Source of the DNA: an uncultured virus (IMG/VR IMGVR_UViG_3300031251_000012)
Taxonomy: Duplodnaviria > Heunggongvirae > Uroviricota > Caudoviricetes
Virus record (IMG/VR): IMGVR_UViG_3300031251_000012
Direction: 5' to 3' (one strand)
Length of the DNA stretch: 64,000 bases
Shown here: positions 2,802 through 61,234 of the stretch, piece after piece
How positions within the stretch are numbered: position 1 is the first letter of the stretch
Layout: the number at the start of each line of letters is the position of its first letter
The notes under the pieces: model-generated
The model's database searches: none
What the model was told of the DNA's origin: nothing
Seen by the model: the letters and a program-made list of their open reading frames with translations, nothing else
Translations under genes and position numbers: made by a program

Positions 2802-3103
2802 AGTAATAACATATATTTTTCTATTTGTTCGCTATAATCTGAAAATTTAAGATCATGTCTTTTTAGAAAATTATACACATGTGATATCGAAGTGAAGGTA
2901 TACCTATCACATGAAGCCTGCATCCATTTAAATACCACAAGTTCGGTAGGCAGAGATTTATAATAATTTATAATGGCATATAGTGTACCTATATTAATAG
3001 AATTATTTATTCGATTATAATCTAATGTTATGAATCCACACTCATCATCTTCAATGATTATTTTATCTATTGTACCATCTTTGAACGAATAACTTATTAA
3101 CAT
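2798..3103 (-). CDS. Small hypothetical protein with EKYMLLL tail
   Basis: Open frame coupled to neighbours; C-terminal motif. Confidence 0.7.
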   Translation of the reverse strand: MLISYSFKDGTIDKIIIEDDECGFITLDYNRINNSINIGTLYAIINYYKSLPTELVVFKWMQASCDRYTFTSISHVYNFLKRHDLKFSDYSEQIEKYMLLL

Positions 3104-3405
3104 AATAACATATACTTTTCTAATTGTTCACCGTACTTATGATATTCCTCATCATATTCTTTAATAAACCACATAGCATCTAATATAGCCATTCCACTAT
3201 ACTCACTGTATAGTTTAATAAACTTTAAAATATTTTTTCCTGCATTATCATTTTTACTTTCATAGAACTGAATCACCGATCTAATGGAACATACCAACGT
3301 ATACCCCATTGTTATACCTAATTCGACTTCTCCATAGGTATCATCAACGATCAAGATACTATAATGTCCATTTGGGAAAAATTTTGTTATCATTTTACTG
3401 GACAA
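3097..3405 (-). CDS. Small hypothetical protein with EKYMLLC tail
   Basis: Similar to 2798..3103; the real start may be the ATG at 3393. Confidence 0.7.
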   Translation of the reverse strand: MSSKMITKFFPNGHYSILIVDDTYGEVELGITMGYTLVCSIRSVIQFYESKNDNAGKNILKFIKLYSEYSGMAILDAMWFIKEYDEEYHKYGEQLEKYMLLC

Positions 3406-4228: not shown

Positions 4229-5332
4229 TTAATATACATCGCATAATTGTCTCGCAACTAACTCAACGCATAAATTATCTAAAAACTTTATGTCTGGTGT
4301 CTTTGGTAAGACATTGCTTGTTTCATAAACAAGTTGTAAATCCTTATCTTCTCGCTCTGCAAACTCTACAATTTGTTCATAGCTCCAAGCGCCATTCCTG
4401 ATAGCAAGCAGTTCTTCTCTGTCTGGTCGTTTAACAATTACTTTACCCGTTGTTAGTATTTCTCTGCACATACGCATTAATCTTATTAAGTGGTAGGCGT
4501 GTTTCGCATCATATCCAAACTTTGCTTCATCGGCTGCTCGTTTTACATTCCTGTTTTTCTTCCAAGTCTGGAAGTTATCCCATTCTGTTTTTAGATTTTT
4601 ATATGCTCGTTCTTTTTTCATAAACTCAATAAAATTATCATTGAATCCTACTTTTCGCGAAGCAGCAAGCCACTGATCGTCTTTTGATATTTTTAGATCC
4701 GTCAAAATATCCGACATTGAATTGCGAATCATAATTTTCATTGGTTCTGACAATTCACCAAGAAAATCGAATTGATATTTTTCTAATTCTTTTTTTATTT
4801 CTGCTTCCGCAGCTATTAATTGATCTGCCGGAATTAATGTCTCTTCTGGCAAACCAAACTCTTTGCGTGTTGGAAAATGTGTTGGCGGATTTAATAGATA
4901 TCGTCTGTGCAACTGTATTCTATTTAATTGACTGCGACTATAACCTGCGAATGTGTAGCGAACTCTTTTCGACAAAAATCGATCTCTATTTGCTAACAAT
5001 ATCTCACCAATCGGCGAAACTAATACACGATCTTTATCATCCGTATATAATGTTTCTATTATCGAAGGATTAGCGTTGCTTGCAAGATTGAAAAACTTGC
5101 GAATATCATATATAACTGTATCTGGTTCTTTTAGTTCTGCTTGCTCAAACTTATGCTGGAATCCATAAAAATATTGTTTCGGTGGAATGGCAACACCTTT
5201 GTAATCTTCATCGCTTGTTGGAGTATCCGTTCCATATGCTTTGCTTCCATATAATGTTAAATATATAACCCCATCACGCATCCAAGATAGATGCGATGAT
5301 TGTTTTACGATTTTTTCAATTACATCATTCAT
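4229..5332 (-). CDS. Pol-beta superfamily nucleotidyltransferase (RlaP/Nuc-transf-like)
   Basis: YGSKAYGTDTPTSDEDYKG, NPSIIETL, YDAKHAYHLIRL, LLAIRNG. Confidence 0.85.
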   Translation of the reverse strand: MNDVIEKIVKQSSHLSWMRDGVIYLTLYGSKAYGTDTPTSDEDYKGVAIPPKQYFYGFQHKFEQAELKEPDTVIYDIRKFFNLASNANPSIIETLYTDDKDRVLVSPIGEILLANRDRFLSKRVRYTFAGYSRSQLNRIQLHRRYLLNPPTHFPTRKEFGLPEETLIPADQLIAAEAEIKKELEKYQFDFLGELSEPMKIMIRNSMSDILTDLKISKDDQWLAASRKVGFNDNFIEFMKKERAYKNLKTEWDNFQTWKKNRNVKRAADEAKFGYDAKHAYHLIRLMRMCREILTTGKVIVKRPDREELLAIRNGAWSYEQIVEFAEREDKDLQLVYETSNVLPKTPDIKFLDNLCVELVARQLCDVY

Positions 5333-5460
5333 TAAAAAATACAACCCCAATGCTTACCGCATTTTGCACATTTCCATTCCATTTCTTCATCTTCTTTTAT
5401 ATAATCGAGAATAAAAGAATGCAATCCAAGGAAGCATAGTATGCGTGTCATTGTAATATC

Positions 5461-8232: not shown

Positions 8233-8261
8233 ATGGTAAGGCTCCGATGAGCGGAAGTCAA
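8233..8261 (-). promoter_or_regulatory. sigma70-type promoter, probably leaderless transcript
   Basis: TTGACT-17 bp-TACCAT; ATG 7 nt after the -10 box. Confidence 0.75.
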
Positions 8262-9155: not shown

Positions 9156-9184
9156 AATGTATGCACTCCCCGCATGTGCGTCAA
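9156..9184 (-). promoter_or_regulatory. sigma70-type promoter
   Basis: TTGACG-17 bp-TACATT. Confidence 0.7.
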
Positions 9185-13714: not shown

Positions 13715-14686
13715 TTATAGTTCGGATCTAAAAAAATCTTCTCCTGTATTGGTTATTTTAAATACTTTTATTCTCATAGGCGTTTCATATTTAGATTTAT
13801 CAGCAATATATTGCAATTCCAAAAATCCCTCATCTTTTATTTGCATCAATCGTGCTGATATTGCTGGAATGCTGTACGATAGATTATAATCTTTTTTCAT
13901 TGCCGTTTTTATAATATAACAATTAGTTTCTTTGTCCGCAAGGACTTTACCATATATCACCCGATCTAATGGACGAAGCGTTTTACAAGTCGATTTTTCT
14001 ATATCAATAATTTTTTGTCTATTTATTTTTGGAAGAAACTGTTCCCATACCTTTGCTTTTCTCTCCATACATATGTCAAACATCGGATCAATATATTCTA
14101 AAAACTTTATTGCTGGCTGTGTCGCAACCTTTATCATCCATAAATCTCTATCTTTTTTTCTTTGATATATTAGGAACTCGCATCCCAGTTTTTCTTGTAA
14201 TTTACCAGCCAACAATGAAGCACCCTTTTTACCAAAACCATCAGTTGATATTTTCATTGTTAGGGCATTTTTACCAGTTTGTAATATACATCCGTCATCT
14301 GCGAACCATATCGCACACACCAATGGTGTTAACTCTAAGTCTTCTGGTATAATTTTCAATCCGTCAGGATACCATTTTTCGTGAAATTCTTTGAATGCAG
14401 GAATTGCTTTTGTTCTAAAAGATACTTGATGATATGATTTTTTATATCGCTCATCGTACCTACTATATTCCTTGAATGCATCTTCTGAACATAAATTACT
14501 AAATATATTGAATTGCCATAAAAGATATTCTTTATCTTTTGCTTGACGATCTATTTTCATACGAGGAAACTTGGCTGCTCCTGCCCGTTCTAATGCAGCA
14601 TCGCCAAGCATTCCTCCTATGAAAACTTGTTCTTGTATTTTTGTTAATTTATGTGGTAAAATAAACTCATTCGATTGTTGAACCAT
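13715..14686 (-). CDS. LAGLIDADG homing endonuclease (two-motif), free-standing
   Basis: FIGGMLGDAAL and LTPLVCAIWFADDG; GGAGG RBS before ATG 14686. Confidence 0.85.
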   Translation of the reverse strand: MVQQSNEFILPHKLTKIQEQVFIGGMLGDAALERAGAAKFPRMKIDRQAKDKEYLLWQFNIFSNLCSEDAFKEYSRYDERYKKSYHQVSFRTKAIPAFKEFHEKWYPDGLKIIPEDLELTPLVCAIWFADDGCILQTGKNALTMKISTDGFGKKGASLLAGKLQEKLGCEFLIYQRKKDRDLWMIKVATQPAIKFLEYIDPMFDICMERKAKVWEQFLPKINRQKIIDIEKSTCKTLRPLDRVIYGKVLADKETNCYIIKTAMKKDYNLSYSIPAISARLMQIKDEGFLELQYIADKSKYETPMRIKVFKITNTGEDFFRSEL

Positions 14687-14695
14687 ACCACGCCT

Positions 14696-14721
14696 CCAAT
14701 AACTATATATCAAGTTATTGG
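14696..14721 (-). promoter_or_regulatory. Hairpin overlapping the RBS, TGATATAT loop
   Basis: CCAATAACT-TGATATAT-AGTTATTGG, perfect 9-bp stem. Confidence 0.6.
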
Positions 14722-14743
14722 TTGATATGGAACGGTTTTTTAT

Positions 14744-16837
14744 TTAATCATTACGCAATGACTTCAAACGTCCAAACGGCGGCTTCCACTTATTATCACT
14801 GGTGCATAGCCATAGCACATCTGTTTCTTTACCAGGCTTCTTAACATCATTTAGTTCTGTATCACTTAGATAGTTATCTGAGATGACAATAATCAGATCT
14901 ACTTTTCCGCAATGTTTTTCGTATTCATTGAATACAAGATTAACTGCGGTACCTCCACGACCACAAGCGACCAACTTAGATAGATTTTCCTTATCTGCCT
15001 TTTTGATCTTAACCATCTGATCCCAATACGCAACGCAGTCAAATGCACAACAGCTCAATTCACCACGTGTATCAATTACCTGTAATTGACTTAGCCCATG
15101 TGCTATATCATCAGCGCTCATGCTTCCAGAACAATCATACGCCACCAAGACATTAAGAAAAATATCTTGTTTCTTTGGTACATATAACCCGGCAAACAAT
15201 GGTCGGCTCTTTGGTCGTTGCCAATCATTGCGCCCCTTACCATCTCGTTTCTTAGTCATCATTTGTCTAACGATGTCCTCCCAACGAATTTTTGGTGCGA
15301 TCAATTGACCGATTTCGTCTTCCATCCCCATTGGAACCTTGCCACCGAGTCTCTTTGCCATTTCCGCAGCATCATACAATCGTTTTGCTAACTCATCTTC
15401 CGACACATCACAATCCATATGTTCATCGGTAAGATCTCCATGACCAAACGGATCTACATATTCACTATCATCTCCGCCACATGTCGGGCAACCATTACCA
15501 CATGATCCTTCTTTATCACCAGGTTCCCCACAACTACCACCTTGCCCCTGACCTTGTCCTTGTCCTTGTCCTTGTCCTTGTCCTTGTCCTTGCCCTTCAC
15601 CGTCGCAGCAAGCGCCTTCGCCGTCACCCGGTTGTTGCCCATTGCCAGCGCCAGGTTGACCATCTGAGCCGTTTTCGCCCTCACCTTGCCCTTGACCCTT
15701 ACCTTGACCTTTGGCATTTTGATTGCCATTACAATCGCCTTCGTGCTCACAACTTTCTCCATCTTCGGAATGATCGTGTTTATCGTTTTTCTGACCTTTC
15801 ATTCCCTTTCCAGCATGTGAGCCTTTACCACCAGACTTTGTTGGTTTGGTCGAGGTGCCAGGATTAGTTTGATTATCTTTACCTTCTTCTTTTTCGGCTG
15901 GGTTCTTACCCTCTGCTTTTGCCTTTGCTTCGGCGTCTTTCTTTGCTTTTTCTTCAATTTGCTTTTGAAGCTTTTTGTACTCATCAGGCTTTTTGTACAT
16001 ACCAAGTTTTCCACACTTTGGGCATTTTGGAATGCAACCATATAGGTAAGCATAGATATTTTCTGGCTTTAACATATCTCCTTCAAGCTTTTCCTCTGCA
16101 TAATACATTGGCGGTGCTTTATCACCAGGATGTTGGTATGCAGGATCTGCTTGTTCGCGAAGATTGTGAATAGGATTAAAATGTGCAAGTCTTTCGGGCG
16201 GATTGAATGGATCTCGATACAACTGTGCAAGTTCTTCGAGTTCAATGAAGTCGCCGAGCTCTTCTTTGAAGTCTTTGATATATTCTTTGCGACCACGGGC
16301 TTTTAGATCCATAAGCGCGACGTGATTGACTTTGTAGTCAATTGCGATATTGTATAGGCGTGGAAGACGAGAACCACGTCGAGAAGGGTGCATAAGATGC
16401 GCGTGTAGAGCTTCGTGAATGATTACTAATCGAAGACCAAGTTTTGAGATCTTATTAACGAACTCGGGCGACCAAAAGAATTGCCTACCATTAGTAGCGG
16501 CAGTTCGTAATACCTTGCCCTTCATATGTTTTTTGTATTTTTTCACTTCATCAGATATTTGATCTTTTTCTTCTTTTGTTAGCTCTTCGCCGTTGGCGAG
16601 TTTCTTTTCAATTTCTTTTTGTTGTTTTTCAAACTCATCGAGTTGAACGCCAAGAGCATCGCATATGTGAGGAAGCGGGTAAATTAGATTGAAAATAAAC
16701 GGATCTCCGCCCAGGAAGTTTCCTAAGGATTTATTGTCATACGACAGAGATAGTTCTGTAAAACATGCCGACAATTTATCTTCTGCTTTTTTAACAATGG
16801 CAGGATCACATTTTCCAATTATCTTACTAAACTTCAT
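14744..16837 (-). CDS. DUF2201-type metallopeptidase + VWA domain protein (MoxR partner)
   Basis: TAATNG, HEALH zincin motif, NIAIDYKVN, MIDAS DCSGSM, GRGGT, SD; GQ-rich insert. Confidence 0.85.
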   Translation of the reverse strand: MKFSKIIGKCDPAIVKKAEDKLSACFTELSLSYDNKSLGNFLGGDPFIFNLIYPLPHICDALGVQLDEFEKQQKEIEKKLANGEELTKEEKDQISDEVKKYKKHMKGKVLRTAATNGRQFFWSPEFVNKISKLGLRLVIIHEALHAHLMHPSRRGSRLPRLYNIAIDYKVNHVALMDLKARGRKEYIKDFKEELGDFIELEELAQLYRDPFNPPERLAHFNPIHNLREQADPAYQHPGDKAPPMYYAEEKLEGDMLKPENIYAYLYGCIPKCPKCGKLGMYKKPDEYKKLQKQIEEKAKKDAEAKAKAEGKNPAEKEEGKDNQTNPGTSTKPTKSGGKGSHAGKGMKGQKNDKHDHSEDGESCEHEGDCNGNQNAKGQGKGQGQGEGENGSDGQPGAGNGQQPGDGEGACCDGEGQGQGQGQGQGQGQGQGQGGSCGEPGDKEGSCGNGCPTCGGDDSEYVDPFGHGDLTDEHMDCDVSEDELAKRLYDAAEMAKRLGGKVPMGMEDEIGQLIAPKIRWEDIVRQMMTKKRDGKGRNDWQRPKSRPLFAGLYVPKKQDIFLNVLVAYDCSGSMSADDIAHGLSQLQVIDTRGELSCCAFDCVAYWDQMVKIKKADKENLSKLVACGRGGTAVNLVFNEYEKHCGKVDLIIVISDNYLSDTELNDVKKPGKETDVLWLCTSDNKWKPPFGRLKSLRND
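15552..15593. repeat. Hexanucleotide tandem repeat (CCTTGT)6+1 encoding a GQ repeat
   Basis: Seen directly. Confidence 0.9.
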
Positions 16838-16876
16838 TTTGATTTCCTCATGATAGATTTTTAACGTTCCACTAAA

Positions 16877-16905
16877 AACTTAATCACTTGTCTCGATTTT
16901 GTCAA
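16877..16905 (-). promoter_or_regulatory. sigma70-type promoter for the VWA/peptidase gene
   Basis: TTGACA-17 bp-TAAGTT. Confidence 0.6.
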
Positions 16906-16917
16906 GTGGGCGGCAAT

Positions 16918-16960
16918 AAAAAAACGATCTGCAAAACTCTACTTTGCAGATCGTTTTTTA
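16918..16960. terminator. Bidirectional intrinsic terminator
   Basis: AAAAAACGATCTGCAAA...TTTGCAGATCGTTTTTT. Confidence 0.85.
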
Positions 16961-17332
16961 CGATTTTGAATCGAATCCGCCTGTTCGTTCAAGTAGCTCA
17001 ACATCTTCTGGTGTTAATATTACAACTTTTTCGTGTTTCCCGTAAGGAGAGTATTTTTCTTCGTCTTCTTCCGCTTCTTTCCAAGTCTTTGCAAACTTAA
17101 GACCACCGGGGCAGAAACTATTATTTTTTACAACTTGTTGTGCAAAATCAATATAGCCATTCAAGTCAAGATCATTAAAATAATCTCTACCCCAGTAGTC
17201 AAGAATGTAATCCCTTGTCGCTCCACCAATAACCATACCGATGATTTGATTTATTGTAATGCGGTGCCCTGGCAAGCAGGGCTTTCCACCGCAACGTTCA
17301 TCATCGATTTCGAATGATATTGTTTTCATCAT
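16958..17332 (-). CDS. DUF433 domain protein
   Basis: DDERCGGKPCLPGHRITI...G.T.DYILDY. Confidence 0.75.
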   Translation of the reverse strand: MMKTISFEIDDERCGGKPCLPGHRITINQIIGMVIGGATRDYILDYWGRDYFNDLDLNGYIDFAQQVVKNNSFCPGGLKFAKTWKEAEEDEEKYSPYGKHEKVVILTPEDVELLERTGGFDSKS

Positions 17333-17374
17333 CTTGACGCAGGGATACCCTTGGCTTTAGGCAAGGGTATTTGA

Positions 17375-18502
17375 CTAGCCTTTGATACGACCTGATAGCT
17401 CTTTTAGAAGATGATCAAAATCCGGATTTGAATCAAGATTTAGATCAACTGTTCTATCAAGACCAATTTGCGAACGAATCGAAACCAATGCAATTTCAGG
17501 ATCCACCTTGCGAAGGAACTTCGCAACCATTTCTGTTTCTTTTGGTAGCTCGCGAGCATCCTTCTTCTTGTTCTTATTCTTCTCGGTGTTATCATCAAGA
17601 AGGCGCGCCAGTCGTGAGCAAACAATCATGCATGCAACGCAACGCTTGCTTGGTTCAAGATCGTCAAAACCCTTGATGCTCTCTCCGCGCATAACCTTCT
17701 CAACAATCGGAAGAAGAACCTGATAGTGATCGAAGTATGCGGCATACTTGATACCGGCTTTACGACCAACGCAACCAGCCGCCTTATTAGTTAAGATTTT
17801 ATGACTCCAACCATTCTTTTCACCGAATGTTAGAATCTTGGAATAATTATCCCAACCGCGTGGTGAAGGATCTGCATAAACATCACCTGGATCAGTATCA
17901 CCGAAAAGATCGTCTCCATGATCTGCAATGTATGCAGTAATCGAAGGATGGATTCTTCCAGCCTTACAAGCCCAATCGAGCCATTGAGTAGAAGTTGCTT
18001 CTACAAGATATTTTTCTGCACGGTCAAGTAGCGGAAGTGGCGGGCGACTACCGCCTTCATTTGGAAGATTTCCTGCCATAAGAACGGCTTGAAGATTACC
18101 AAGTGCCTTACCATTGACTGTATGGAATTGTGTAAATTCAAGTAGCGGCGCAATAACGCTGTGATCCATCTTATCGATCTCATCGAAGAAGACGACAACC
18201 CTATTCTTTCCTTGCATTAGTTGCTCGTAATACCAAGGAAGAAGGAATCGAATAAATTGTTCTTCTTTGGCATCGAAAATCTTTGGGAATCCACCAGCAT
18301 CGGTTCGTTCGAATGTGCTGGCGTTGAGATATAGCAGATCATATCCTGATGCTGCAACCGCGCTTTTACCAATCTCAGATTTACCAGATCCTCGTCGAGC
18401 ACAAGCGAAAATATTACCACCGTATTGGATCGTAGCTGCCATTGTTTCCGAAAGCTCCTGAGTTCCAATTTTTTGCATATTAAAATCTGATGATGCTGTC
18501 AT
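17375..18502 (-). CDS. MoxR-like AAA+ ATPase
   Basis: Walker A RRGSGKS, Walker B FFDEID, MAGN, PLLDR, SPRGW. Confidence 0.85.
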   Translation of the reverse strand: MTASSDFNMQKIGTQELSETMAATIQYGGNIFACARRGSGKSEIGKSAVAASGYDLLYLNASTFERTDAGGFPKIFDAKEEQFIRFLLPWYYEQLMQGKNRVVVFFDEIDKMDHSVIAPLLEFTQFHTVNGKALGNLQAVLMAGNLPNEGGSRPPLPLLDRAEKYLVEATSTQWLDWACKAGRIHPSITAYIADHGDDLFGDTDPGDVYADPSPRGWDNYSKILTFGEKNGWSHKILTNKAAGCVGRKAGIKYAAYFDHYQVLLPIVEKVMRGESIKGFDDLEPSKRCVACMIVCSRLARLLDDNTEKNKNKKKDARELPKETEMVAKFLRKVDPEIALVSIRSQIGLDRTVDLNLDSNPDFDHLLKELSGRIKG

Positions 18503-21365: not shown

Positions 21366-21387
21366 CTTACTAAATATCCTAATATAG

Positions 21388-21461
21388 TCTTGGGTACTGG
21401 ACTCGAACCAGTGGCCTCGCCGACCCAAACGGCGCGCAATACCAGACTTTGCTAACCCAAG
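21388..21461 (-). tRNA. tRNA-Pro (UGG), CCA not encoded
   Basis: Acceptor CTTGGGT/ACCCAAG + A73; D stem GCAA/TTGC; anticodon arm CGCCG-TTTGGGT-CGGCG; T arm ACTGG-TTCGAGT-CCAGT. Confidence 0.92.
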
Positions 21462-21967: not shown

Positions 21968-23062
21968 TTATTGCCCTTTATTAAAGAAGGCTTTGATACA
22001 TTTCAAAATGTCATCATCGTTATCTATTGTAGCAACATTTACCTGATCGTTATCCCCGAAGTCTTTTTCAAGATAGCGAGGAAAATCACCACTACCACCA
22101 TTAGTTTTTGTTTCACCGAAGTTAACCACATTACAATTTGGAAGAATACGCTCATTCAACAATCTTCCGCATAGCTGATTGTCGCCATCTGAAAAATTAT
22201 CACCATCTCCAAAATTGAATACATAAGAATTATATTCAGAAAACGGAAACTCGTTTTCAAGAAGATCGGCAATAATCTTATATGCAGATGAGATTTGTGT
22301 TCCACCTGACGAATTGATTGAGAAAAACTGCTCACGCTCAACTATCTTGGCAGAAGTATCATGAACAATAAATACACTTTCCATGTCTTTATATGTTCTA
22401 CTAAGAATTAGATCAATCCAAAAGCATATCTTTTGTGCACGCTTTCGGGCTTCATCTGTCATTGACCCAGACACATCTATTGTGTATAGACACACCGCAT
22501 TGATTTCTGGCTTCGGCTGAATTGATGAAGACTTATATCGAAAATCACCTCTCTGTGGAATTACAATCGGATTAGAAGGATTATACATTCCAGTTGAGAT
22601 CTGGCGTTTTAATGCTTCTTTATACGAGCGTTTAAAATGACGCATACCGTCATTGCCAACCCTATTGACTTCATTCCATTTTGCTTTTTCTGATGAAGCC
22701 GAACCTTTACCTTTTGGTTCAAGGTCAGGAAGTTGAAGTTCTTCTCGGATCATATCTACAAGTTCATCTCTGTCAAATTCGACGAACATATGATCGCCAT
22801 CACCTTCGCCAGCTTCACCTTGTCCGGGCTTTCCTTTGCCCGGTCCCATTGGATCTCCGGGTTCCCCATTGCCCATCCCGCTACCACCACCTTGACCACC
22901 GAATGAAAATCTTGGAAGATCAATGCTTGCAAGGGGCACTTTAATAATTTTTCCTGAAACTTGTGCCGTCATGGCGTCTGACGTAGCAAACTTTTTTAGA
23001 TCTTTACGGACCTTACCTTTGACAATAGAATGAAACCGATCAACATCATTACCAATTTTCAT
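21968..23062 (-). CDS. YeaH/YhbH (DUF444) family VWA-containing protein
   Basis: DVDRF, P.F.FG, Gly-rich linker, LQLPDL.PK, DVSGSM, GGTQISSAY, GDGDN. Confidence 0.88.
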   Translation of the reverse strand: MKIGNDVDRFHSIVKGKVRKDLKKFATSDAMTAQVSGKIIKVPLASIDLPRFSFGGQGGGSGMGNGEPGDPMGPGKGKPGQGEAGEGDGDHMFVEFDRDELVDMIREELQLPDLEPKGKGSASSEKAKWNEVNRVGNDGMRHFKRSYKEALKRQISTGMYNPSNPIVIPQRGDFRYKSSSIQPKPEINAVCLYTIDVSGSMTDEARKRAQKICFWIDLILSRTYKDMESVFIVHDTSAKIVEREQFFSINSSGGTQISSAYKIIADLLENEFPFSEYNSYVFNFGDGDNFSDGDNQLCGRLLNERILPNCNVVNFGETKTNGGSGDFPRYLEKDFGDNDQVNVATIDNDDDILKCIKAFFNKGQ

Positions 23063-30477: not shown

Positions 30478-31227
30478 TTATACCAAGTGAGAAAAGACCG
30501 GCGAACTCCAAACTAACTTTTCCATTGCAGCTTTATCGAGATATCGTGTTTTAATTGGATCTTGAATGAAGCTTAGAATATCGCCACCAGCATAACAATG
30601 ATATGATTTAGACTGATTACTAATTGAAACACTACGAACCGGATTTCCATCAACGAAGTGAAGCGCCGCGTGATCATCAATAGCGTATCCACTTTTGATA
30701 TTGTTATCAAGCATTTCTTTTTCGTATGCTTCTCTTCGCATTTTTGAACTATAATGCGGGCAATTGCTATATGGCAAAATACCAAGACAAGGCATTACGC
30801 TGAGTTTTCCGGGCACGCTATCAGTAATGCATTCATCGAACCATACGACGCTACCAGCGCTTCCACCAGATAGGATGATACCAGCATCGTAAGCATCGCG
30901 CAAGGCGCTGTCAACTTTCCATTCATTCCATAGAATGATCATATTTCTGCTATGACCGCCACCAACAAAAACAATATCATTACTCATAATGATATCTTTT
31001 ATATCTTTAGTGGGTGGATTAAATAATGAAAGGTATGATGGGATACAAGGGAACCTTTCAAAATATTTTTTAAAATAATTTATGTAGTCAGGATTATCTC
31101 CCGATGCTGTTCCTAAAAATAAAATACGAGGATTAATTTTTTGGGATTGAGACAAAATATACAATTCAATAGACGGATTTTTATCGTCTAATCCACCAGA
31201 ACCGATTGCAATTATTTGCTTGGGCAT
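30478..31227 (-). CDS. Peptidase E (S51 family)
   Basis: IIAIGSGG, TASGD, VGGG, GGSAGS nucleophile, CPHY, IDD. Confidence 0.9.
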   Translation of the reverse strand: MPKQIIAIGSGGLDDKNPSIELYILSQSQKINPRILFLGTASGDNPDYINYFKKYFERFPCIPSYLSLFNPPTKDIKDIIMSNDIVFVGGGHSRNMIILWNEWKVDSALRDAYDAGIILSGGSAGSVVWFDECITDSVPGKLSVMPCLGILPYSNCPHYSSKMRREAYEKEMLDNNIKSGYAIDDHAALHFVDGNPVRSVSISNQSKSYHCYAGGDILSFIQDPIKTRYLDKAAMEKLVWSSPVFSHLV

Positions 31228-55774: not shown

Positions 55775-56113
55775 TTATACCAATGTTAGATATTTTGCTA
55801 AGTTTTCTTTACCGTAGATTTTCTTATCATCTAATTGTGTAATGTGTTGCCCATTGATCCAATATTCTGTATGACCATTGACCCATTCTTTTGCTGGGCC
55901 GTCTTCTCTATGAAGTTCGGCTTTACCATTTATAAGGGAATAAGATCTTCTAACGCTCCTATCATAGTAATCTATGAATCCATTTTGTATGAAAATGCGA
56001 GAACTATTTCCGAATAATTCGTATAATTTTTTATTCACAATAAAACAAGTCTGGTGAATTATGTGTTTTACTGTTTGTCCAACTCTAAATAATAGATTTT
56101 GTTGCATAATCAA
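55775..56113 (-). CDS. Hypothetical protein with one HRxDGPA repeat and AKYLTLV tail
   Basis: LHREDGPAKEWVNGHTEYWING. Confidence 0.65.
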   Translation of the reverse strand: MIMQQNLLFRVGQTVKHIIHQTCFIVNKKLYELFGNSSRIFIQNGFIDYYDRSVRRSYSLINGKAELHREDGPAKEWVNGHTEYWINGQHITQLDDKKIYGKENLAKYLTLV

Positions 56114-57081
56114 TCTACTTTATACACATTAACAAGAAAACTATTACTATCAACTTCAATCTTTTTCGAATCCTTGTTGCCCCAATTATCTGGCAACAAT
56201 GCAATATGATTCGCAAGTAATTCTTTTTTCAATTTATCTTTATATTTAGCAATAACATTTGCCTCTTTTGGCATACAGCAGATTTCAATCTCTACTCTAT
56301 CTGTCAATTCCAATTCAAGTTCTTTTCGAACATTTTGCAATGCAGATTTCAAGTCGGCAATAAATCCTTGCTCCAACAATTCAGGAGTTAAATTAGTGTC
56401 AAGAATGATTACCCCCGACCTGTTTGATGCAGAAGCATAACCCGCTTTTGATACGAACTCAACTTCAATATCACTCAATGTTAGATCAATATCGCACATT
56501 CTAACTGTTTCTTTATTTTCAAGCAGTTTATACAAGTTTTTCCTATCGGCAAAACTCATTTTTGCCAATTCAGCTTTCAGTCCGTTTGCTTGCTTTCCAG
56601 CGCCACGCTTACCAAGAACTCGAAAATTAGGTTTCAATACCATATCGGTAAATTCATTTGCATTCTCAATGAATACAACTTTCTCAACATTCAATTCATC
56701 TCCAAGAATATTAGCATATTCGTTATGTTTGCAATCAACATATACCATATAATTTTGAACTTGTTTGTCTGAATATAATACATACGCTGTGCGTAATGGC
56801 TGTCGATTACGGATCTTTACATCCGCACGAACCTTATGCCCCATCTCACACATATCGCGAATTGAACGCATACGATCAATCAATTCAAAATCAACATCGC
56901 TCAGTGGTAATTTATCTACACTGACGATAGTGAAGTTTGGATCGTTTTGATATTCCACCTGATACTCTTTGATCAGTTGTTCTGATTTATCGTCAATGGA
57001 ATTGAATGACGCGAATGCTGTCCATTCCTGAACGAATCCATTATCGTTTGTTGATTTGTAGCGAACTGTGTATTCACGCAC
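56110..57081 (-). CDS. Stand-alone protein homologous to the C-terminal (non-catalytic) region of type-2 isoleucyl-tRNA synthetase
   Basis: KIRNRQPL, ELNVEKV, KPNFRVLGKR, LDTNLTPELLEQG, QNVRK...LTDRV; no HIGH/KMSKS. Confidence 0.75.
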   Translation of the reverse strand: MREYTVRYKSTNDNGFVQEWTAFASFNSIDDKSEQLIKEYQVEYQNDPNFTIVSVDKLPLSDVDFELIDRMRSIRDMCEMGHKVRADVKIRNRQPLRTAYVLYSDKQVQNYMVYVDCKHNEYANILGDELNVEKVVFIENANEFTDMVLKPNFRVLGKRGAGKQANGLKAELAKMSFADRKNLYKLLENKETVRMCDIDLTLSDIEVEFVSKAGYASASNRSGVIILDTNLTPELLEQGFIADLKSALQNVRKELELELTDRVEIEICCMPKEANVIAKYKDKLKKELLANHIALLPDNWGNKDSKKIEVDSNSFLVNVYKVD

Positions 57082-57197: not shown

Positions 57198-57683
57198 TTA
57201 TGCAATTGCTTTGCTAAATTGTTTATAGTCCTTATAGGACTTTGTAATCCTATTCCAAAATCCCCACGATCTGTTTTTCCTACTACCAGTGAAAAACAAT
57301 GTCCATGGACCATCATTTTCATCAATCAATTCCACTCGATGAAAATCGTTAGGCGTGAAAAAATTGAATGACAAGGGTTTTACAAAACGACGATATACCG
57401 TATCATCTGGTGCTCTGCGTTCTTCCCAGTATCCCTTTGTCAAAACGAAACTAAATGAAAAACTCGTCGGATGGTTGTGGAGAAGATACGCATATCCTCC
57501 AACATTATCAGTAATATCAATATCAAGATCACTACTACGAAAATGATGAAGGAACAAGTTTCCCCGTTCCCTATCTTTCCATAATAGGTAATACCGTGTC
57601 AAGTATGGCTTGCCATCTGGCTTTGGAATTGTAATATTAGGAATCTTTTTAACCAATGAACCAAGCACACTTAGCATTATCAT
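57198..57683 (-). CDS. Cupin-fold protein
   Basis: PYLTRY, LHHF, LHNHP, GYWE, FHRVEL, WTLFFTG, WGFW. Confidence 0.7.
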   Translation of the reverse strand: MIMLSVLGSLVKKIPNITIPKPDGKPYLTRYYLLWKDRERGNLFLHHFRSSDLDIDITDNVGGYAYLLHNHPTSFSFSFVLTKGYWEERRAPDDTVYRRFVKPLSFNFFTPNDFHRVELIDENDGPWTLFFTGSRKNRSWGFWNRITKSYKDYKQFSKAIA

Positions 57684-57700
57684 TCTCCATCTAAATTGTC

Positions 57701-57898
57701 GGGAACGCTGGAACCTTTACCAGTCGGCATTTAACTTATCCAGTTCTCATTCTTATAGATTACGCTTTGCAATCTACCGCGTCTGGGCACATTCAGCGGC
57801 GAATGAAAGGGATTTGTTTGCTTGCGGGCACGCCTCTATCGAGACTTTCAGATATTTTCAACTTTGGACATTTACTTTATCTAAAAAACTCCGCTCCC
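57701..57898 (-). ncRNA. Candidate structured ncRNA (~198 nt; 6S-like or tRNA/tmRNA-like)
   Basis: No coding ORF on the sense strand; 5' GGGAGCG pairs with 3' CGUUCCC; internal helices; begins at the predicted TSS. Confidence 0.6.
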
Positions 57899-57905
57899 TG
57901 TTAGT

Positions 57906-57934
57906 ATTGTAAGCATTAGCCCGACACCCGTCAA
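57906..57934 (-). promoter_or_regulatory. sigma70-type promoter
   Basis: TTGACG-17 bp-TACAAT. Confidence 0.82.
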
Positions 57935-58440
57935 GGGGCTTTGGGATATTGTTTTTTATCTTTATTGGAACCAACTCTTGGCATTTCAACGCCGAAGATA
58001 GTTCGGTATATCGTTGCAAGACATACTTCTGAACAAGCAACTCTATTTGGTAAATCTTGTGTCTCGTAAGCCTTGTTCATATTACCAATTGGCTTTTGGC
58101 AATTGCAACATTTAGCCATACTTTTTAATGTTGTTTGTGCCCAGCGTTCAAGTTTTTCAATGTCTTTTTTATTGTGAGGATCGAATAATTGGCAGGAACC
58201 TTTGCCATCCGCATTTACAAGTGAAACGCTTTTTGTTTCATCCCAATATTTCTGATGCCACTCTTCAATCATACGAAGCGATACATTTACTGCATCAACA
58301 GGACTAACAAGGTTTTTTTGTTCGCCACTAAACATAACTGGAAGTATATCTTTGCCAGCGAACTTAGAACCACCACAACTAATCTCTACGAGTAGTCTAT
58401 TGTCTTCATAACGTCTCTGGCGAGACACATAATAACCCAT
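57931..58440 (-). CDS. Hypothetical protein with C-terminal Cys cluster
   Basis: CCNC...CSEVC. Confidence 0.6.
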   Translation of the reverse strand: MGYYVSRQRRYEDNRLLVEISCGGSKFAGKDILPVMFSGEQKNLVSPVDAVNVSLRMIEEWHQKYWDETKSVSLVNADGKGSCQLFDPHNKKDIEKLERWAQTTLKSMAKCCNCQKPIGNMNKAYETQDLPNRVACSEVCLATIYRTIFGVEMPRVGSNKDKKQYPKAP

Positions 58441-61205: not shown

Positions 61206-61234
61206 AATGTAAGGCTCCGTGCCCGCCAAGTCAA
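61206..61234 (-). promoter_or_regulatory. sigma70-type promoter
   Basis: TTGACT-17 bp-TACATT. Confidence 0.75.

Follow-up and report, generated by a model that had tools for sequence, protein, structure and literature searches.

We report a structured non-coding RNA domain of 199 nt at the head of a protein operon in an uncultured Caudoviricetes phage. It lies on the minus strand of the 64,000-nucleotide stretch of DNA analysed here (the window), in a 247-nt gap with minus-strand genes on both sides, and the data support its assignment to a new RNA family, absent from Rfam 15. The original prediction had placed an unannotated structured RNA at this site, perhaps of a new class of non-coding RNA. 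The structured RNA is borne out, and the sequences support a new class as well, because pairing covaries with two independent homologues and no Rfam family matches. The locus has the following features:

57931..58440, minus strand: upstream gene, encoding a 169-aa protein that has no assigned family and carries clustered cysteines near its C terminus (Pfam/PHROG search, protein searches)
57929..57934, minus strand: -35 hexamer TTGACG (promoter scan), overlapping the TGA stop codon of the upstream 169-aa gene
57906..57911, minus strand: -10 hexamer TACAAT after a 17-bp spacer (promoter scan), invariant in all three sequences
57899, minus strand: predicted transcription start, an A 7 nt past the -10 hexamer and one base ahead of the closing stem P1 (promoter geometry)
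57701..57899, minus strand: structured non-coding RNA domain, 199 nt, new family (fold and covariation; without an Rfam family and without a conserved reading frame)
57693..57700, minus strand: conserved single-stranded GACAAUUU directly after P1, with conservation stopping after this block (alignment)
57675..57688, minus strand: Shine-Dalgarno GGAG (57685-57688) and likely true cupin start ATG (57675-57677) (spacing, and the starts of the homologues)
57198..57683, minus strand: downstream gene, encoding a 161-aa cupin-fold metal enzyme, the first gene of the operon (phrog_4786 match, AlphaFold2, Foldseek)
56110-57081, minus strand: free-standing type-2 IleRS C-terminal-domain protein, 323 aa (Pfam, PDB and NCBIfam matches)

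The window is A+T-rich (31-41% G+C) and densely packed with genes, nearly all of them on the minus strand. Its gene content, including a 5'-3' exonuclease, an NAD-dependent DNA ligase, a UvrD-type helicase, an RNA ligase and one tRNA-Pro, indicates a large phage. A 157-kb IMG/VR record is 100% identical to the window across the RNA region. In a near-complete relative, Pfam detected no RNA polymerase beta subunit and gave a sigma-like match below threshold only; this fits use of the host polymerase, although a divergent phage polymerase could escape Pfam.

The operon is an unusual one, in which the cupin metal enzyme is joined by a stand-alone tRNA-synthetase anticodon-binding domain and by a NUDIX hydrolase. 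The AlphaFold2 model of the cupin protein (pLDDT 89) is a cupin barrel, and its closest Foldseek matches are thiol dioxygenases, quercetinase and other metal cupins (E about 1e-5). As listed, its reading frame begins at an ATG at 57683, 1 nt past GGAG; the real start is likely the second ATG, at 57677, giving 159 aa, which we prefer because of its spacing from GGAG and the equivalent start in the homologues. The gene for the 323-aa protein lies about 620 nt downstream of the RNA in the same operon. This protein matches Pfam DUF5915 (E = 1.8e-33), its residues 63-295 match residues 784-1007 of a type-2 IleRS in the PDB (E = 1e-17), and its NCBIfam match is the C-terminal part of MupA/MupB. It has no synthetase catalytic body; the region retained is what we take to be the part of IleRS that contacts the tRNA anticodon arm. 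A literature search on DUF5915 gave nothing relevant.

The upstream 169-aa protein matched no Pfam or PHROG family, and a fold search gave no match at E<=0.001. Residues P47, D49, D67, E68 and K70 are invariant, as are the C-terminal cysteines C111, C114, C136 and C140. Its model has a pLDDT of only 65, and Cas4-family, lambda exonuclease and influenza PA endonuclease chains are among its Foldseek matches, individually non-significant at E 0.2-1.2. These weak matches are a hint that the protein may be a PD-(D/E)XK nuclease carrying a zinc finger.

The promoter named in the original prediction, TTGACG-17-TACAAT (57934-57906, minus strand), matches 10 of 12 consensus positions in a promoter scan and is kept in all three distinct sequences, with the -35 bases TTGAC identical in both homologues. 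Its geometry would set +1 at the A at 57899. The pattern TTGAC-N18-TACNNT occurs five times in the window, always on the coding strand and with a G+C-rich spacer, where 2.5 are expected, an excess that by count alone is not significant. The other four sites, from a pattern scan of the window, are:

8233-8261, minus strand: TTGAC-N18-TACNNT promoter
9156-9184, minus strand: TTGAC-N18-TACNNT promoter
30886-30914, minus strand: TTGAC-N18-TACNNT promoter
61206-61234, minus strand: TTGAC-N18-TACNNT promoter

By eye, all four have G+C-rich spacers with self-complementarity, against a genomic G+C of about 35%, and they are reminiscent of the composite promoter/stem-loop (PeSL) cassettes of T4-type phages. 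For the promoter at 61206, the only other one traced to its gene start, the leader is about 15-18 nt long against 222 nt here, so the leader that carries the RNA is exceptional. The 19-nt promoter-proximal motif was unique in our search.

A PeSL cassette is a short, repeated promoter-terminator motif (PMC4122927). Compared with that description (PMC4122927), the present locus is alike in having an early sigma70-type promoter directly behind the preceding gene, a G+C-rich spacer that is self-complementary by eye and several similar promoters in the genome; it differs in that the RNA is single-copy, 199 nt long and downstream of the promoter rather than inside it.

Three distinct versions of the RNA were found: that of the window; a homologue at positions 3036-3240 of a 406-kb phage contig that is 95% complete (L004), from a pattern scan; and one at positions 276-472 of a 1478-nt metagenome contig (L107), from a scan with the upstream protein. 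Three further metagenome loci are identical to the window. These RNAs come from closely related phages of one narrow clade with a single gene order (169-aa gene, RNA, cupin gene, 82/83-aa gene, IleRS C-terminal-domain gene, the start of the last being present even in L107) shared by all three versions, so that association with the cupin gene is not separable from association with the upstream gene. A covariance model search found one RNA copy per genome, which rules out paralogous copies within a genome.

Wider searches delimit this distribution. With blastn, 801 nt had no match in 50,697 phage records, and exact-pattern scans of IMG/VR with five conserved blocks gave real matches only in the window's own record and in L004. 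A covariance model built from two sequences (R1) found no homologue among 92 loci, which were mostly chance 15-mer matches. In GTDB genomes, protein alignment gave no relative in 43 pattern matches, and an 18-mer search gave 14 matches, none a homologue by R1. The metagenome scan with upstream-protein alignment returned 176 pattern matches and 4 relatives, of which 3 were those identical to the window and 1, L107, was new. Protein searches found at least 7 related clusters for the upstream gene and at least 19 for the cupin; against cultured phages, tblastn found nothing for the upstream protein and only cupins, below 60% identity.

Several candidate loci were rejected. L059 scored 16.8 bits with R1 but lacks the whole P4-P6 domain, L100 is located within a coding region, and L124 and L126 are not homologues. 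At positions 12-32 of L126, 21 nt are identical to the L004 junction segment AACTGGACAAAGTTAAATGCC; L126 is an unrelated viral contig of 6 kb, and the identical bases lie right where it begins, within a different inverted repeat. The identity is probably due to chance, and the L126 contig ends there.

The consensus fold of the three versions is a four-way junction formed by P1, P2, a P3-P6 core and P7, with 10 helices in the consensus. Its elements, from 5' to 3' in the RNA except for the two P1 strands, which are given first, are:

57892..57898, minus strand: P1 5' strand, GGGAGCG (consensus fold)
57701..57707, minus strand: P1 3' strand, CGUUCCC (consensus fold)
57841..57891, minus strand: P2, a long hairpin arm of 14-18 bp (single-sequence folds)
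57863..57869, minus strand: invariant P2 apical loop GUCCAAA, a candidate tertiary contact or pseudoknot partner (alignment)
57726..57834, minus strand: conserved core of ~110 nt, with P3 (GGCGU/AUGCC) enclosing GCCCGCAAGC, P4a/P4, P5 and P6 (alignment, consensus fold)
57738..57742, minus strand: UGGAU, candidate partner of the P2 loop (pseudoknot) or of AUCC (nested P4a) (alignment)
57708..57723, minus strand: P7, a hairpin adjoining P1 with fully variable sequence and pairing kept (4 of 6 pairs changed on both sides)

Covariation among homologues, a check that the original prediction had called for, favours this fold. Read as indications rather than as a formal test, coming as they do from three related sequences, the figures are that 16 of the 59 RNAalifold consensus pairs keep their pairing through changes on both sides, that standard pairs fill 93.8% of pair cells against 85.2% in shuffles, and that none of 500 shuffles reaches the observed covariation. 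When the 3' partners were slid by 1-3 columns, only 32-45% of cells were paired, with 0-3 pairs changed on both sides against the 16 observed. The signal is spread across five separate helices.

The closing stem, predicted as GGGAGCG/CGUUCCC, is P1. Its 7 bp read GGGAAUG/CAUUCCC in both homologues, with one pair changed on both sides and one G-U turned into A-U. The proposed extension of this stem by GAGUUUUUUAG/CUGGUAAAGGUUC gives way to a different pairing, in which GAG...CUC is part of the arm P2 and CUGG/CCAG forms a hairpin of its own, P7. The stem sequence of P2 is different in each homologue, and 6 of 12 aligned pairs are changed on both sides; the A-rich internal bubble of the original prediction corresponds to the internal and apical loop of this arm. 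In P7, the window's CUGG/CCAG becomes ACCACA/UGUGGU and ACUGC/GCAGU in the homologues. These stems are unrelated, and the loops of the three sequences are UAAAGGUU, AAAG and GAUGGU.

The core behaves differently. Of its columns, 90 of 120 are invariant, whereas the figures for the outer parts are 30 of 61 and 10 of 25, and it contains unpaired blocks of 18 and 12 invariant bases. P3 (GGCGU/AUGCC) is invariant; P4 is UUUCAUUC/GAAUGAGA, co-varying to UUUCACUC/GAGUGAAA; P5 is GCYGC/GCGGU; and P6 is AGAUUGC/GUAAUCU. The P6 hairpin had been proposed as AGAUUGC-AAAGC-GUAAUCU, and three of its pairs are changed on both sides. The pairing of GCCGC with GCGGU was also foreseen, as a pseudoknot; it is an ordinary nested hairpin, P5. 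Two other proposed hairpins fail in the alignment: the 5' strand of GUCUC-GAUA-GAGGC is neither conserved nor complementary in L004 or L107, and CAUUC-GCCGCU-GAAUG meets a C-A mismatch in L004, UUUCAUUC pairing with GAAUGAGA instead. An invariant core on freely varying stems is the pattern expected of a scaffolded binding pocket, and suggests one here.

A helix between UGUCCA and UGGAUA, also part of the original prediction, survives in altered form, as a possible 5-bp pairing of the P2 loop with the junction (GUCCA/UGGAY) in all three sequences. L004 has UGGAC, and this U-to-C change turns a G-U pair of the pseudoknot into G-C and breaks the competing nested pair. This single substitution hints at a loop-to-junction pseudoknot.

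The RNA also folds better than shuffled sequence, as anticipated. Positions 57899-57701 have a folding energy of -55.5 kcal/mol against a shuffle mean of -43.5 (z = -3.02), with none of 200 shuffles as good; the corresponding values are z = -3.37 with 2 of 200 for L004 and z = -2.51 with 1 of 200 for L107. A coding function is rejected by the absence of a conserved frame, each sense frame having 3-9 stops in every sequence, and indels of 1-4 nt separate the three versions. A long antisense open stretch is confined to the window and lost in L004 and L107. The three versions share 72-78% nucleotide identity, close to the 75-84% of the flanking genes, which indicates that the RNA evolves under constraint.

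Searches against the 4227 families of Rfam 15 gave no relevant match, either at gathering score or, for sequences of 801 nt and 211 nt, at E<=10; the best rows (E 1.3-8.3) are chance matches to eukaryotic lncRNA, miRNA and snoRNA models. The cmscan check suggested at the outset gave no match to 6S, tmRNA or Y-RNA-type models, and no ribozyme family matched the RNA. The T-box, considered because of the IleRS-derived gene in the operon, likewise had no Rfam model match at gathering score or E<=10. ARAGORN reported no tRNA or tmRNA at the RNA locus, its only hit in the window being the tRNA-Pro at 21387-21461. A literature search found nothing on the RNA or on short sequence strings from it, and nothing relevant on structured RNAs of jumbo phages.

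A scan between P1 and the cupin start codon found no terminator-like site, so that, physically at least, the RNA makes up the first 199 nt of the 222-nt leader. A candidate terminator at 57572-57549 was rejected, as it lies inside the cupin gene and the matching stretch of L004 is not self-complementary by eye. In all three sequences the domain folds independently within the full leader, and the Shine-Dalgarno sequence is never predicted to pair with the RNA domain, its only partner being early coding sequence. Between P1 and the ATG lie 23 nt in the window, 20 nt in L004 and 55 nt in L107; this variation argues against tight coupling with translation initiation. Given also that the ribosome-binding site does not pair with the domain, any control would need to act through the polymerase, decay or processing. 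The GACAAUUU block that follows P1 is possibly a processing site.

We tentatively prefer to see the RNA as a cis-acting leader that binds a factor, a reading favoured by the conserved core and variable scaffold stems that suggest a binding pocket. A host-type (sigma70-like) RNA polymerase would start at the conserved promoter, one base before P1, and the nascent RNA would fold into the four-way junction, with P1, the long P2 and its GUCCAAA loop, the P3-P6 core and the variable P7. Transcription, meeting no terminator, would run on into the cupin gene and the operon behind it. A factor, be it a small ligand, a protein or the polymerase during transcription, would attach to the core, which the P2 loop probably locks by contacting the junction. 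How much operon transcript is made, or how stable it is, would depend on this binding; hiding of the ribosome-binding site would not be the mode of action. Against the cis-acting leader stands the observation that the paired 5' end and the GACAAUUU block after P1 suit a processed stable RNA equally well.

Large junction-type riboswitch aptamers offer the closest comparison in architecture; SAM-I has a four-way junction with a loop-to-junction pseudoknot, and the lysine and cobalamin aptamers are of the same general type. Like these, the phage RNA lies in a 5' leader right after the promoter, is a multi-helix junction closed by P1, has a conserved junction core with varying yet paired peripheral stems and a likely loop-to-junction contact, and is within the size range of the largest aptamers. 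A conserved aptamer-like domain closed by P1 in a 5' leader is thus present. The differences are the lack of an Rfam riboswitch match, the 20-55 nt spacer, the single gene context and the lack of an expression platform, there being neither a terminator-like site nor, in any of the three folds, pairing of the ribosome-binding site with the domain. A more specific proposal, which we regard as doubtful though worth stating, is that huge phages, and they only, possess a new class of large sensory or factor-binding RNAs, whose aptamer the present RNA would be. It might be a riboswitch-like leader without a classical expression platform that acts, for example, through the transcribing polymerase or RNA decay; or else it might be the RNA half of a ribonucleoprotein whose other half is a protein of the operon, for instance the free-standing IleRS anticodon-binding domain or the Cys-cluster protein encoded upstream.

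The HK022 put RNAs and EAR are leader RNAs that act in cis by modifying the polymerase. The present RNA resembles them in its place immediately after an early promoter, with a long operon following, in the lack of an expression platform and in being carried by a phage. The put RNAs, at about 70 nt, are just two simple stem-loops, whereas the present domain has 199 nt and a complex core, and no downstream terminators to override were identified.

The most serious alternative to the cis-acting leader, possible but in our judgement the less probable of the two, is a stable, stand-alone RNA acting in trans: the first ~200 nt would be cut from the operon transcript, perhaps at GACAAUUU as a putative RNase site, and would have its target in the host or the phage, much as may be true of the T4 stable RNAs or Y-type RNAs. 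P1 joins the very 5' end to the 3' end and so makes a closed, nuclease-resistant domain; conservation ends 8 nt past P1, the domain is equally conserved in L107 despite the 55 nt to the gene, the RNA has a strong promoter of its own, and its fold is uncoupled from the ribosome-binding site. What weakens this account is that our scan found no terminator and no recognised processing signal. Orphan phage RNAs such as the T4 stable RNAs C and D, which lie in a tRNA cluster and are released by processing without a terminator of their own, are likewise small, stable-looking structured RNAs of large phages, but the RNA described here has its own promoter and heads a protein operon.

It is unlikely that the structure merely protects or processes mRNA, stabilising the operon transcript through a folded 5' end or an RNase III-type arm without a specific partner. 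The 5' end is indeed paired from +2, and the 14-18 bp of P2 are reminiscent of phage processing hairpins, but such a function has no need for a near-invariant core of about 110 nt with unpaired invariant blocks of 18 and 12 bases.

The original prediction had also suggested a degenerate tRNA or tmRNA mimic. In the form in which we considered it, as a tRNA-like decoy or an RNA partner of the operon's free-standing IleRS C-terminal domain with a cloverleaf-like body, this is improbable. In its favour are the four-way junction with a 7-bp P1 and with P7 adjoining it without a linker, the invariant 7-nt GUCCAAA loop, which with U at position 2 and purines at 6-7 recalls an anticodon loop, and the 323-aa IleRS-domain protein encoded nearby. 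However, neither ARAGORN nor the tRNA, tmRNA and Y-RNA-type models of Rfam recognise the RNA, there is no CCA and no G3-U70, and the anticodon-like triplet is not that of isoleucine, nothing in the RNA resembling tRNA-Ile. The supposed T arm, P7, has no conserved T-loop, its stem and loop both varying. The tag-like frame ANKSLSFAA is not conserved either: in the window it continues past the final AA to ANKSLSFAAECAQTR and a stop, in L004 it reads AIN and a stop because of a 4-nt insertion, and in L107 it reads ANKSLSFAAECEKTR and a stop. Only the topology of the mimic survives, in the form of a four-way junction carrying a 7-bp terminal stem. With a free-standing piece of IleRS in the operon, a partnership between the RNA and that protein is nevertheless a legitimate long shot.

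The compact multi-helix fold, the probable pseudoknot, the highly conserved core and the position immediately 5' of an mRNA would also suit a catalytic RNA, self-cleaving or of another kind, by which the operon mRNA matures at its 5' end, but we think this very unlikely, as no Rfam ribozyme family matches and no cleavage-site signature is recognisable. The 6S-like sponge for sigma70 RNA polymerase put forward in the original prediction is hardly credible: although the RNA shares with 6S RNA (RF00013) a length of about 200 nt, paired ends and a plausible link to sigma70-type transcription, and although early transcription from a promoter of host type would fit a take-over of the host, the 211-nt sequence has no covariance-model match to 6S even at E<=10, and its fold is a branched four-way junction, where 6S RNA has a long irregular duplex whose central bubble resembles an open promoter.

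New here is the RNA family; the kind is familiar, that of a structured leader or orphan structured RNA of a large phage. Few complex structured RNAs of ~200 nt have multi-helix junctions together with long invariant unpaired blocks, and most of the known ones have turned out to be riboswitches, ribozymes or ribonucleoprotein cores. The known distribution, a small clade of uncultured huge phages, is very narrow and limits general reach. The covariation support is enough to justify bench work on an RNA with a defined promoter and clear boundaries. If the RNA binds a ligand or protein, it would show how a huge phage controls an early operon and might yield a new aptamer or RNA-protein pair.

Two further observations concern the gene content of the phage. 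An ORF for a LAGLIDADG homing endonuclease (13715-14713 of the window, minus strand; Pfam E = 5e-29) borders a patch of 40% G+C (14000-18000) in a genome of about 33% G+C, and the region may be a mobile insertion, such as an intron or an intein. The same phage also carries an RNA-repair/stress-type gene set, encoded on the minus strand of the window: an RNA ligase (415-1428), an RlaP-type RNA-repair nucleotidyltransferase (4229-5350), a DUF444 protein (21968-23062) and a DUF2201 metallopeptidase/VWA protein (14744-16837).
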